Origin: Eledone cirrhosa
Taxonomy: Eukaryota
DNA: 64,000 nt
Direction: 5' to 3'
NCBI GenBank assembly: GCA_964016885.1
Contig: OZ024750.1
Coordinates: forward strand, 46,500,001 to 46,564,000
In this document: positions 7,430 through 53,773 of the stretch, one piece after another
Layout of the letters: each line of letters opens with the position of its first letter
How positions within the stretch are numbered: position 1 is the first letter of the stretch
Notes under the pieces: model-generated
The model's input: only the letters and a program-made list of their open reading frames with translations
What the model was told of the DNA's origin: nothing
Database searches by the model: none
Position numbers and translations under genes: made by a program

Positions 7430-7615
7430 GGACCGTTAAGGTGTGATTTCCATGAGTATGTCATTATTTATAAAACAAATTTTGTATTTTATCTGATGAA
7501 AGCGCACCAAGATTTTATCTGATGAAAGCGCACCAAGGTTTGTTTGGTCGCCCTTTAAATATATATAATACAATAAATATAGTTTTATAAATATAGTTTC
7601 CATGTATTATTATCT
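7430..7615 (+). mobile_element. Family-A HHR element, probably inactive
   Basis: 26-bp tandem duplication of attttatCTGATGAaagcgcaccaag; GAAA is mutated to TAAA; the family tail is present. Confidence 0.8.
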
Positions 7616-7801
7616 TGGTATATATATATATATATATATATATATATATATATTGTATAACAATAAAACTATGCATATATCAGATAAGTAGCACTCAACA
7701 GTTGGAAGACCTGGAGTATAAATAATAAAGAAGAAATAAAGATGGTTATAAGAGTTCCATATATTTTATTATACGTATTTCGAATACAAAATAATCCTGT
7801 T

Positions 7802-7869
7802 TTTTTATCTGAAGAGAACACATCATCTGTCCCATGATGATTTTGTATTCGAAATACGTATAATACAAT
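7802..7869 (+). ncRNA. Type I hammerhead ribozyme (family A-related) in a fold-back element
   Basis: ttttat-CTGAAGA-(gaa...atcat/atgat...ttc)-GAAA-TACGTA-TA-atacaa, with a palindromic stem III. The 3' half has an inverted copy at 7742-7796. Confidence 0.75.
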
Positions 7870-8019
7870 ATATGGAACTCTTATAACCATATTTATTATA
7901 TATATATATATTTATATATATATATATATTTATAAATACATATATACATAAGTATATATAAACCCTTAGAGCTAAAATTTCTTATTAGCACGGATTACAT
8001 TTTAAGCAAACTATTTATC

Positions 8020-8208
8020 TGTTTCTACTTTTGGCACAAGGCCAGCAAATACCCAATACATTACTGGTACTTTATTTTATCGCCCCCGTAAGGAAGAAAA
8101 CCAAAGTTAAACTCGGCGGGATTTGAACTCAGATCATAAAGGGACGTAACTCTTTGCTGCAAAGCATGGCGTCAGACCCTCTACCGATACTGGCAATCCA
8201 CCGCCCTG
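8020..8208 (-). mobile_element. tRNA-derived SINE (dominant family)
   Basis: Full-length reverse-complement match to the in-window consensus, including the B-box-like GAGTTCAAATCCC. Confidence 0.85.
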
Positions 8209-9971
8209 GGCTAATAATGAATATATCGCACAAAAAGATTCACACATCCACACACCGGCAATCCATCTCAACGTATGAACGCAGTCGATTTATTCCAGTT
8301 TGAGTTAGTGAGTGCGCGTGTGTGTGTGTGTGTGTGTGTGTGTGTGTACGTGAGAGAGAGACCGCGAGAAAAAGAGAAAATAGAAAGAACGAGATAGATG
8401 ATTGAAAAAGAAATATAGGGAAAGATTGACTCCCAGTCCTAAATGGTACCATCCTATTTATAGACCTCGAAAGGATGGAAAGCAAAGTTGCCTTTGGCGG
8501 GATTTGAAATCAGAGTACATAGACCAAATGCCACAAAACATTCCGTACGATCTTCTATACAACTCTGAGAATTTGCTGTATCATGATCTACTATATTTTT
8601 CAATAAGACGACACATTACTTCTCCAATAAGTAAATTAACTGAGAATATCTGAGACATGTTCCCGGATAGTTTATTTTCAAAGTTTGGGAAGAATAAATC
8701 TTAATAACATACTCTAAATGATATCTTTTGTCTGTATTTATTTTTGTTTGATTTTTTTTGTTTTTGATATTTTCCTGTTTTTCGCCTTTGATTTATTTTT
8801 ATCTGTTTTTCTGATTAAAGAATGTTAAATGTAAAATGTGAAATAACATTTCACTGGGCGTCAATTCTTTGAAAATATCACTACTAAAACTATTATGATT
8901 GTTATCATTGAGTTAATGAGGCAGACTCTATGCAATCACTCGACCTTTTAGAAATAGATGCGAAAGGACATTGCATTGTCGAGCAAAGCGCTTCCATAGA
9001 AATATTGGCAGGGCTGGATTGAAACTAGAAACCCTGGGTTAGACAATATATAACCACCCACACCACCAATAACTGCTCGGAAGGCACTATATGAAAACTA
9101 CAAGCAAATGAAATACTTGAAAGTAAGCCTACACAAATATCGAGTTATGTCCACCTGAAAAACGGAGTTGACGTTAACAGAAAAATAGACTTATTGAAAA
9201 TGTAGAAGCGTCAATGTTTACTATGAAAACTGTCAAAGAAATTGGCCATAAGATCCCTTGAATAGAAAAAGGCTGACAGCATCTTTTTTTCATTGTTAGA
9301 ATATTTTTCACAGTAAAAGTAAAAGACATTGATGCTTCTAAATTTTCAATAAAGATATATGCACTCAACGTTTCTAAAAATAAATGTAAAAAAAAAAAAG
9401 AATTATTTAGTGATAGTTAAATTCTAAAAGTTTACATAAGTATTTTTTCATCGCGATATTTTAATATGTATTCAAAAATATATTTTAAACAGGATCGAGA
9501 ATCCTGAAATATAATGAGACCTTGTGCTGCAGGCCACTTAGCCCACATGTAAATCCGATACGCGTAGTGAGTGTGTGTGTGTGTGTGTTTATGAGTTCGT
9601 TACAACGTAAGATGGATACATAATATCTTCAGCCAATTAAACACGCATACACGTCTACACATACATATATACATGTGATGACAGACAGGTGTGCGTGAAT
9701 GTATGTCTGTGTGCATCTGTCTTAGTATATGTATGTGAGTGTATGTGAGAGTGTGTGTGAGCGTATGTTAGATTGTAAGTGTGTTGGTGTATGTATGTGT
9801 GAGTGGATTGTGAGTGTATGTGTAATAATTAATATTTTCATTTGCATAAAAATAATAGAAAATAACACACCGATCTCACATTTTCTATATGAATATGTAT
9901 GTGTCTGTGAGGGTGTTTGTGCGCGCGTTCATTAGGAACGTGATTAAATACACGCATGTACATGATTAAAT

Positions 9972-10595
9972 ACACTGCCATGTCCTGCGTCTCCAAGAGA
10001 CCAGTGTCTGTCCTTAGGGAATCAACATATGTTAACCTCGGTCTCCATCTTCTAGTTTGTCCGTGCAGGGGCTCCCACAGGAGCACTGAGTGCAGTGTCA
10101 ACTCTGGATGTCGGTGAGCAGATCCAGCTAACCTCAACGTACTCTGTGTTACTTTCGAGCTGCTTTTGGGAGGTTCCCATACAGCTCTGAGTTCTTCATC
10201 ATCAGTGCATACTCATTAATATTCAGAGCCATCCTCAGCCTTCTCGTGTAGGACCCATCCACCACCGGAGTGAGTTACTTGGTCAGTGTCCAAGTCTCAG
10301 ACACGTACGGCACCACAGACTCCACTGCAGCAATGAAGAGACAGATTTTCAGGTCTTTACGAAGGTCCGACTGCTACACCGATCTCGAACTGTTAACGCC
10401 GCCCAGGCTTTGTTCTTCCCCTCAACCACATCATCCTATGTGTTTCCAATATTTGCTCCCAGAAACAGGAAGTCCTCATCCAATTCTAGCGGCTTCCCAC
10501 CTATATTTGTAAACTTCTCTGGCTACTTAATCTACTCTACCAGATACTTCGTCTTAATCTCATTCATTCTAAGCCCCACACTCATCGGCACAGTC
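9972..10595 (-). mobile_element. RTE-clade LINE 3' fragment
   Basis: Reads LRLAGSAHRHPEL...VLLWEPLHG...RPRLTYVDSLRTDTG, paralleling the C-terminus of the RTE at 61473-61886. Confidence 0.8.
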
Positions 10596-10669
10596 GATAT
10601 ATATATATGTATGTATATATATATATATATATATATATATATATATATATATATATATATATATATATA

Positions 10670-51641: not shown

Positions 51642-51706
51642 TATTTCATTATACATATTTCAAGGACACCAAGTTAAATTATGGTGCGCTTTCATCAGAT
51701 AAAATA
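51642..51706 (-). ncRNA. Type I hammerhead ribozyme, family A, intact core (element about 51599-51900)
   Basis: Minus: TATTTTAT-CTGATGA-AAGcgCACCAtaatttaactTGGTGtcCTT-GAAA-TATGTA-TA-ATGAAATA. Confidence 0.88.
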
Positions 51707-51938
51707 TAATATAGATCAGTTTTATAAATAAATATTGACATACCCTTAGAGAATGCGACCATTTCTGTCGGAAGCTCCCGGATAGTGGGGTTATTAAATT
51801 TATTTAGTCTATTATGCAAATTAGGGTCGGATATGTTAAAATCACAGTAGATTTAAAATAAGCTGTTGAAGTATGGAAAAAAGGGAAAGAAAAGAAAAAG
51901 AGAAAAACGAAGGAATGGTGGTAGGAACCAGATGGACC

Positions 51939-52469
51939 GTACGTCTGTATACATATATGTATGTACGTATACATACTTATATTTAAGTAACAGCCGTACT
52001 AAGAGTGAGAAATGAAATTTCGTTTCATTTTTTCCGTTTATCGTTTTCGGTACCCCGGCCGATTAACTAACTCTATATGCAAATTAGTCTGCTCAGCCGT
52101 TAATGTGCATAAAGAATGTTATACTTTCAGACGTTCAACCATCTGGCAGGAAGTTATACGTTGCTGACGATAGCTAATAAGCTTGAAACTAGTACAGCGT
52201 TCCTTTGTCAGTGTTGAACAAATGAGCAACGATGGTTGCTAGACACTGTACGGCTTAATTCGGGATGCTTGTTTACAAACACACCGGGCATTATAATAAA
52301 TGTTCGGTGAATCCATACGTACATATATATATGTGTGCATGTATGTATATATATATATACATACTACTGTACGTATGTATACATATATGTATGTACGTAT
52401 ACATACTTATATTTAAGTAACAGCCGTACTAAAGTGAGAAATGAAATTTCGTTTCATTTTTTCCGTTTA
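51939..52469 (+). mobile_element. Partial-tandem element: direct repeat of about 100 bp, 430-bp period, enclosing an HHR
   Basis: 51939-52040 is nearly identical to 52369-52469; ends in (TA)n. Confidence 0.8.
52158..52200 (+). ncRNA. Minimal type I hammerhead ribozyme, family F, intact
   Basis: ACGTTG-CTGACGA-tAGCTaataAGCTt-GAAA-CTAG-TA-CAGCGT; ACTAGT palindromic stem III, GUA site. Confidence 0.9.
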
Positions 52470-53091
52470 TATATATATATATATATATATATATATATAT
52501 ATATAACCAAAAGGTTATATGGTTCGTTAATTATTCAACGAATTCAATTTTACGATAGATTAGAAGCACTAATAAGCACTATATATATACACACAGGCGC
52601 AGATGTGGTATCGTGTTTAAGGAGTGCACTTCACCTGGTTCATTGGGAATGTGTTTTCTGCTCGTCTAAAAAATGTATACACACTTTGATTACCTGTATA
52701 TTTTATTAGAATGCTGTTGAAGCATATGTGCATTTTTGGGCACACCTTGTATATATATATATATATATATATATATATATATATATATATATATATATAT
52801 ATATATATATATATATATATAAAGTTTAAACTTTAATCTGTTATTTAAAATATTTGCTCTACGGTTCTTATATATTTGATATATATTTATCCTTATCGAG
52901 CCCTCTTCAAATTTATTATTATTACTATATATATATATATATATATATATATACACATAGTATTAAGAATATTTATATTTATATATGTTTGATATAACTA
53001 TAAATATGTAGGGTAGTACTAAGTACTAGCCGGTTACCGGTATGACAAAAGGCTCAATGCAAATTTTCAAGTGTTTTACAGAGCCGAGATA

Positions 53092-53236
53092 CAAAGTGTT
53101 AAAACGATCAAATTTTAGTTTAGAACATTGATTTGCTGACAATTGTTTCTTCCAGATGATTCCAGACTTACCTCTGGAAGAAACAATTGTCATCAAATAA
53201 ACGTTCTAAACTAAAATAAGATCGTTTTTACACTTT
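53092..53236. repeat. Fold-back inverted repeat (arms about 63 bp)
   Basis: aaagtgttaaaacgatc...tttcttccaga / tctggaagaaa...gatcgtttttacacttt; ends at (TA)n. Confidence 0.85.
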
Positions 53237-53333
53237 ATATATATATATATATATACATACATATATATATATCCAGGAGGAATATATGTCTTTTTTTCCG
53301 GGTTTGTCAATATTTATTTATAAAACAAAACTG

Positions 53334-53399
53334 TATTTTATCTGATGAAAGCGCACCATAATTTTCCGTGGTTGCCCTTGAAATATGTATAATAAAATA
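53334..53399 (+). ncRNA. Type I hammerhead ribozyme, family A, intact core
   Basis: TATTTTAT-CTGATGA-AAGcgcACCAtaattttccgTGGTtgccCTT-GAAA-TATGTA-TA-ATAAAATA. Outer stem TATTTATAAAAC (53315-26) / GTTTTATAAATA (53406-17). Confidence 0.9.
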
Positions 53400-53773
53400 A
53401 ATATGGTTTTATAAATATAGTTTCCATTTATTAATATATTGAATATATATATATATATATATATATATATATATATATATATATATATATATATAGTTTC
53501 AATGTTTATATGGAAAAGGGGAAAGAGGCAGGATCAGAAAATAGAGAGTGGTCTCTGACGCACGATATTTTTCGATTATATATATATCGGGCCCAGAACT
53601 GGGCCTGTTCGGTAGGGATCGAACCGTGAGCTGATCAGTCGCATCTCCCTGAATAAACTTAATGAAAATTTGACACGTCACCCCTACTTATTAGGACCTC
53701 TTATTTTTATCTAAAGACATTTTCTCCAATTCCATCCCGCCCCTCCCCTCAATCTATCTTATTTCCCATTCTT

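Follow-up and report, generated by a model that had tools for sequence, protein, structure and literature searches.

The stretch analyzed here (the window) comprises 64,000 nucleotides (nt) of the Eledone cirrhosa contig OZ024750.1, with a G+C content of 35% and simple or tandem repeats over about one quarter of its length. Dispersed in it is a repeated motif, Family A, which reads in the order stem I 5' arm, CUGANGA, stem II, GAAA, UAYRUA, UA and stem I 3' arm, and which from its sequence is probably a type I hammerhead-like motif with a predicted AUA site. A Family A profile trained on 8 clean copies and run over the window recovered several 3' fragments in addition to 16 copies that include stem II, and a strict pattern gave 8 matches against 0 in 100 shuffles. 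The first-pass annotation of this DNA had counted about 14 copies in 7430-53417; there are 13 with stem II in that range, 14 only if the 7493/7519 duplication counts double, and three further copies lie outside it, at 199-856. The Family A features are the following.

201-250, forward strand: 5'-truncated copy that no longer has the CUGAUGA box but keeps the GAAA box, the site and a perfect 12-bp stem II
Near 290, forward strand: short 3' end of copy 201-250, at (TA)n
353-417, reverse strand: hammerhead copy with mutated core (CGGATGA); short-end arm of the inverted unit 313-949
752-816, forward strand: hammerhead copy with mutated core (CCGATGA); tail-bearing arm of unit 313-949
848-949, forward strand: short-end region plus tail, terminating at (TA)n
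7485-7575, forward strand: single copy in which 26 nt are duplicated internally, giving boxes at 7493 and 7519; GAAA changed to TAAA
7653-7795, reverse strand: inverted 5'-truncated arm plus tail, TACGTA subfamily, terminating at (TA)n
7801-7870, forward strand: divergent subfamily copy with TACGTA, G10.1-C11.1 and C·A at stem II position 4; intact core
11070-11122, forward strand: core-mutated copy (CTGTTGA), cut off 3' of stem III
11335-11395, reverse strand: intact-core copy with TATATA; H17 at 11343
13510-13575, forward strand: divergent intact-core copy whose stem II begins with G-C at positions 1-2 and retains the C·C
To about 13701, forward strand: divergent tail after copy 13510-13575
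16014-16138, reverse strand: inverted 3' piece with tail, terminating at (TA)n
16212-16276, forward strand: intact-core copy; short-end arm of unit 16014-16318
26311-26371, forward strand: intact-core copy with 1 stem I mismatch
28507-28571, forward strand: copy with U16.1 changed to C; the triplet is ACA
28653-28712, reverse strand: inverted last 59 nt of the tail, terminating at (TA)n
28781-28845, forward strand: copy with GAAA changed to GCAA; short-end arm of unit 28653-28885
28947-29006, reverse strand: 3' fragment from the GAAA box onward, on the far side of the (TA)n that bounds unit 28653-28885
29247-29307, reverse strand: intact-core copy; short-end arm of unit 29203-30077
29360-29876, reverse strand: about 520 nt of upstream body, the longest seen, which recurs in the read set at far lower depth; no Pfam family above cut-off
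29880-29941, forward strand: intact-core copy with 2 stem I mismatches; tail-bearing arm of unit 29203-30077
29975-30077, forward strand: short-end region plus tail with two conserved hairpins, terminating at (TA)n
51143-51547, no strand assigned: inverted pair of 3' ends, the tail arm broken by another 3' fragment and a SINE-like repeat of about 185 nt (SINE, short interspersed nuclear element)
51642-51706, reverse strand: intact-core copy with TATGTA; upstream body to about 51898
53334-53399, forward strand: intact-core copy with TATGTA; short end at (TA)n

A search of viral contigs with the Family A pattern found 0, and three metagenome contigs that matched it were set aside as coincidental, their DNA being prokaryote-like and lacking the stems.

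The CUGANGA and GAAA boxes and the NUH triplet stand in the order that a type I hammerhead fold requires, and 9 of the 16 cores are intact, 6 carry one change and 1 is truncated; the fold proposed earlier is supported, whereas the constancy claimed for the core holds for those nine copies and not for the altered or truncated remainder. The AUA triplet was found in 14 of the 16. It had been called unusual, but it has precedents in the hammerhead of a Drosophila willistoni Penelope (Cervera and de la Pena 2014, PMC4209133) and in those of ELVd(+), sCYDV-RPV(+) and csc RNA(-), which use AUA as their site (PMC1636495). In the genomic copies, mutations were counted at 6 of 170 catalytic positions and at 6 of 286 flank positions (p=0.38). 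As the former are conserved no better than the latter, the copies are not detectably selected, and the selection on RNA structure that had been argued from compensatory change belongs to the source elements.

That compensatory change resides in stem II, which is 9-13 bp long and ends in a hypervariable loop. Six of its 8 pairs are altered on both sides, whereas none of the 8 pairs of stem I is. Covariation on a 16-row alignment, the structure being read from those same sequences, scored 0.232, against 0.150 +/- 0.016 in 500 shuffles that take no account of relatedness and of which none (0/500) reached that value; slid-register controls scored far lower, and RNAalifold on a MAFFT alignment recovered stem II only. 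At stem II positions 1, 2, 3, 5 and 6, 77 of 80 cells are paired, and parsimony on a tree of the flanks places at least 12 same-branch double changes over these positions, although the number of independent events is uncertain because most branches of that tree have support below 55. The six stem II pairings quoted in the first-pass annotation are all present; however, AAGCATACCATG lies at 201-230, outside the range given for it and in a copy without the CUGAUGA box, and four of the six have a common ACCA/UGGU core, so they do not amount to six independent compensations. Position 4, on which the first-pass annotation is silent, stands apart, being unpaired in 14 of the 16 copies (C·C in 13) and paired in 2.

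The behavior of position 4 bears on another origin for the covariation, by which template switching at the DNA level in quasi-palindromes made the matching arms, the motif itself being either a relic without catalysis or solely an element that binds protein. Family A makes fold-backs, one copy has the perfect 12-bp stem II, no selection is detectable on the cores of genomic copies, and for the element PAc (Poseidon, Anolis) cleavage is dispensable for insertion in vitro (PMC11167929). Template switching is nevertheless disfavored: if one arm were copied onto the other, position 4 would lose its mismatch, whereas the pairs on either side co-change while C·C stays (13 of 16); in addition, copy 13518 has double changes at stem II positions 1, 2 and 8, G·U intermediates are present, and even the two subfamilies that diverge most, at 50% identity, have retained the triplet and both boxes. 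We regard this origin as very improbable.

Stem III is made of U-A plus A-U around the hexamers TATATA, TACGTA and TATGTA, all three of which are present as described earlier. In monomer folding, closing these 2 bp costs about 3 kcal/mol and the probability of the A15.1-U16.1 pair is 0.0004-0.005. Fifteen of the 16 copies have a fully self-complementary 8-mer spanning A15.1 to U16.1; that the 8-mer remains so while its center varies (UA, UG or CG) fits pairing between two molecules rather than a tetraloop. A double-hammerhead fold, in which stem III becomes 8 bp, was 11.6-15.9 kcal/mol below two active monomers. The suggestion of a dimer formed through the palindrome gains from these results, and for the Family A hammerhead we consider it well founded as a folding model. 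The closest intact cores on the same strand are 2.7 kb apart in the window (range 2.7-23 kb).

Stem I has 8 bp and no G-C pair; describing it as all A/U leaves out 8 G·U cells in 7 copies. Both stem I and stem II are able to form. Beyond an internal loop whose 5' side measures 7, 8 or 12 nt depending on the subfamily, stem I can be extended by a distal helix, which is complementary at 12 of 12 positions in 8 of the 16 copies. This much of the earlier description stands, but the extension does not covary: among the 11 copies with at least 9 of 12 pairs there were 0 double changes, 4 wobbles and 5 mismatches. The same annotation read here the geometry of loop I-loop II contacts. A monomer-active extended hammerhead stabilized by such tertiary contacts would be in keeping with the 8-bp stem I, the internal loop and the distal helix, and of 9 copies folded, 4 had this fold as their minimum-energy structure. 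However, loop II is hypervariable and removed from the core by 9-13 bp, the internal loop differs between subfamilies, stem I probability was clearly raised by the extension in 1 of 10 copies only, and stem III of the monomer does not exceed a probability of 0.005. The conserved loops I and II at a short, fixed distance from the core by which canonical extended hammerheads are recognized are not seen in Family A. We therefore do not retain the contact geometry, and an extended, monomer-active hammerhead appears to us extremely unlikely.

What the first-pass annotation missed is the setting of the motif, very probably at the 3' end of a retroelement of the Penelope-like element (PLE) type. There are two fixed 3' ends, about 50 nt (short) and about 150 nt (long) past the ribozyme site. 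The 3'-end motif gave 18 matches, 13 of them tail-less and 5 running on into a tail; all 13 tail-less ends lie within 7 nt of (TA)4+, against a background of 2.8%. Of 9 matches to a tail profile, 1 is a hairpin matching itself, and 7 of the 8 others terminate at (TA)n. The tail carries two conserved hairpins, with 4 of 13 pairs altered on both sides among 6 sequences, and single-sequence folding was significant in only 1-2 of the 6. Six two-armed inverted units were delimited (313-949, 7653-7898, 16014-16318, 28653-28885, 29203-30077 and 51143-51547), and each of the six carries the tail on a single arm. Single (TA)n tracts at 291-312, 28612-28652, 28886-28946 and 51548-51600 have Family A ends on both sides, which suggests repeated insertion into one microsatellite.

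Published PLE insertions are 5'-truncated, lie next to an inverted copy that is also truncated, bear a tail at one of their ends and target microsatellites (Craig 2021, PMC8557442). The traits of endonuclease-bearing (EN+) PLEs found in Family A are a hammerhead near the 3' end, heavy 5' truncation, the adjacent inverted 5'-truncated copy, the one-end tail and a microsatellite or AT-rich target. Because the 3' ends at (TA)n, the inverted arms, the one-sided tail and the steep 5' truncation match the published layout, we assign Family A to PLE-type insertion; it is very probably a type I hammerhead in the 3' end (pseudo-long terminal repeat, pLTR) of a (TA)n-targeting PLE family, autonomous or a non-autonomous derivative. 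The (TA)n preference, inverted arms and one-sided tail are also those of the octopus Hydra and Naiad PLEs, and the Hydra-1_oBim hammerhead has a 4-bp stem III and a sequence unlike Family A (PMC8557442). Short exact words of Family A gave no relevant match to the Hydra-1_Obim and octopus Naiad consensus files among the places listed, where line breaks can hide matches. An octopus repeat annotation reports 31 recently active Penelope-like families, with ribozymes unmentioned in the part available.

Among known hammerheads, the D. willistoni Penelope is a close parallel: it is type I, with a U-A/A-U stem III round a palindromic tetraloop, AUA and an A-U-first stem II (PMC4209133, Fig. S3 and Table S1; the row was read from extracted figure text, in which the GAAA column is printed apart). 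Family A has the same type, triplet, 2-bp A/U stem III, palindromic loop and A-U-first stem II. The Penelope differs in having a G/C-rich stem I of 5 bp, a stem II of 6 bp and an additional base following A9; in Family A, stem I has 8 bp and no G-C, stem II has 9-13 bp with position 4 unpaired, and the additional base is absent. The minimal hammerheads of metazoan PLEs are mostly single, truncated and dispersed, with opposite-strand pairs 100-700 bp apart; they have a long helix II and a palindromic 15.2-16.2, form covariation-rich families and are thought to be dimeric (PMC4209133, PMC6765202). Family A resembles them in its dispersal, opposite-strand pairs, long helix II, covariation and palindrome. 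Their consensus includes G10.1-C11.1, an inserted base and a short helix I, the first two of which are mostly missing in Family A. In PAc, the tail is the span between two reverse transcription starts downstream of a protein-assisted hammerhead (Frangieh 2024, PMC11167929). Family A likewise has its hammerhead upstream of two 3' sites that define an optional tail, and AT-rich targets; the PAc tail is 30-40 nt and its ORF begins in stem II, whereas the Family A tail is about 100 nt and no conserved downstream open reading frame (ORF) is visible.

The copies might instead belong, as solo monomers, to a non-LTR retrozyme: a short element without coding capacity that forms circles, borrows PLE proteins and has its tandem arrays elsewhere in the genome. 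Non-LTR retrozymes consist of tandem repeats of about 300 bp with one hammerhead each (PMC7229834; bioRxiv 10.64898/2026.07.22.740005), and Family A shares with them a type I hammerhead, a weak helix III, a non-coding nature and a relation to PLEs. Retrozymes of the invertebrate type have a 2-bp stem III closed by a tetraloop (PMC7229834), the approximately 520 nt upstream hold no coding sequence, and retrozymes, proposed to derive from PLEs, include many solo monomers (bioRxiv 10.64898/2026.07.22.740005). However, the unit is never repeated head-to-tail in the window, unlike the tandem 300-bp repeats of retrozymes, its upstream body exceeds a monomer of about 300 bp and is 5'-truncated, and the inverted arms and one-sided tail are PLE insertion traits. 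We consider a retrozyme unlikely, and this explanation overlaps the non-autonomous form of the PLE one.

Four of 15 sequencing runs were compared with 29205-30062. Contigs placed on this unit numbered 6,989 for one run, assembled independently of the window, and 149 and 27 for two other organisms; loose contig ends enter (TA)n at both of its 3' ends. In run X1, depth was 1e5-1e6 on the motif and mostly 1e2-3e3 over the upstream body, a fall of about 1000-fold, where read depth on a Family A unit is not equivalent to copy number. A depth spike at 29640-29697 probably reflects an AT-rich patch common to other repeats. In two loose-end consensuses from other runs, different distal stems may be read above a C·C, from 18-30 letters. 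Contig joints near the predicted cleavage site suffer from bias due to local mismatches and are not counted here in favor of cleavage. A splice-donor-like AG/GT occurs 30-60 nt upstream of several copies, at a location that is not fixed.

Several results weigh against placing Family A in a PLE as a hammerhead. Pfam searches of 149 of the 245 filtered ORFs of the window found no PLE reverse transcriptase or GIY-YIG domain, with one long interspersed nuclear element (LINE) above cut-off and, elsewhere, four weak matches that fell below it; no PLE domain was found among 17 short ORFs lying upstream of copies, which gave two weak below-cut-off Pfam matches, a search limited by the longest copy having only about 520 nt upstream. 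A protein atlas search with one 68-aa ORF gave no usable match, and no pLTR-ORF-pLTR tandem was found in the window. The Rfam hammerhead models gave 0 matches at gathering score in the window, and none of 33 Rfam matches at E up to 10 in 11250-16400 was a hammerhead. The usual G10.1-C11.1 is present in only 2 of 16 copies, the first stem II pair being A-U in 11 and G·U in 3; an A-U first pair is also found in a published PLE hammerhead (PMC4209133). Several copies have a poorly populated stem I, only 5 of 9 copies gave a dimer energy below twice the minimum of the monomer, the neglect of relatedness in the shuffles and the weak flank tree burden the covariation, and the tail of about 95-100 nt exceeds the 30-40 nt in print (PMC8557442).

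Under the PLE explanation, a PLE protein would nick (TA)n and reverse transcription would start about 50 or 150 nt downstream of the ribozyme site; by likeness to PAc, we infer that the tail is the span between these two starts. Most copies would stop early, making the ribozyme the part most often copied. In the source transcript, a 2-bp stem III would be too weak alone, and two motifs could pair via the self-complementary AUAYRUAU 8-mer and be cut after AUA, possibly with protein help. The covariation of stem II would then be a record of selection on successive source elements, while genomic copies would decay neutrally.

Other repeats and hammerhead-like motifs were observed in the window. 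A second hammerhead family (6441-6544; 26933-26987, reverse strand; 7346, forward strand) includes an inverted pair, adjoins (TA)n and has a 7-bp stem I, a weak stem II and a longer stem III; the site of the 26980 copy is GUA. The ACAG/CUGU stem III of this family is similar to rows given for Hydra-clade PLEs (PMC8557442). A third, minimal-hammerhead-like motif lies at 13302 in 13204-13398 (forward strand), with a homologue at 11725-12159 (reverse strand) split by an insert of about 270 nt; both loci are 200-400 nt or more upstream of a same-strand Family A copy. Single hammerhead-like box pairs were seen at 5795 (forward strand), with a possible AUA site after a near-palindrome, at 14991 (reverse strand) and at 31415 (forward strand). 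Long fold-back inverted repeats of other families (1798-2070, 10671-11008, 15109-15315, 23694-24385, 30381-31102, 53094-53235 and 58536-58841) are typical of insertions of PLEs or miniature inverted-repeat transposable elements. The SINE-like repeat of about 185 nt has well over 10 copies, some in tandem, at 8020-8204, 12200-12390, 18013-18195, 31731-31919, 44587-45155, 51267-51451, 55292-55659 and elsewhere; presumably it resembles octopus SINEs. A frameshifted LINE occupies 59168-61886 (forward strand), with AP endonuclease and RVT_1 Pfam matches at 59168-61318, and 1-198 (forward strand), which abuts the truncated copy at 199, resembles by eye a LINE reverse transcriptase fragment, with no Pfam match. 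There are also a 39-nt tandem array with long Thr/Ala-rich open frames at 18169-20300 and a direct repeat of 440 nt with 95% identity at 21301-21738 and 22062-22501.

The unpaired position 4 of stem II (14 of 16 copies, 13 of them C·C) and the long two-hairpin tail may be new; no description of the C·C mismatch or of Family A was found in the open-licence literature, a scope outside which Repbase falls. We tentatively entertain that Family A represents an undescribed, very high-copy PLE lineage with a hammerhead subtype undetected by Rfam, in which C·C at position 4 would replace loop II as the place where stem I, or the protein of the element itself, docks, while a tail of about 100 nt with two hairpins would space the reverse transcription starts far wider than in the PLE papers compared here; this is possible rather than probable. 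The importance of the finding is modest: with Family A, the dimer-type PLE hammerheads already known gain a probable cephalopod family, an abundant one that Rfam models miss. Its stem II variants, C·C mismatch and graded palindrome (UA, UG, CG) form a ready mutant series, which bears on the role of PLE hammerheads and on their need for a partner or a protein.

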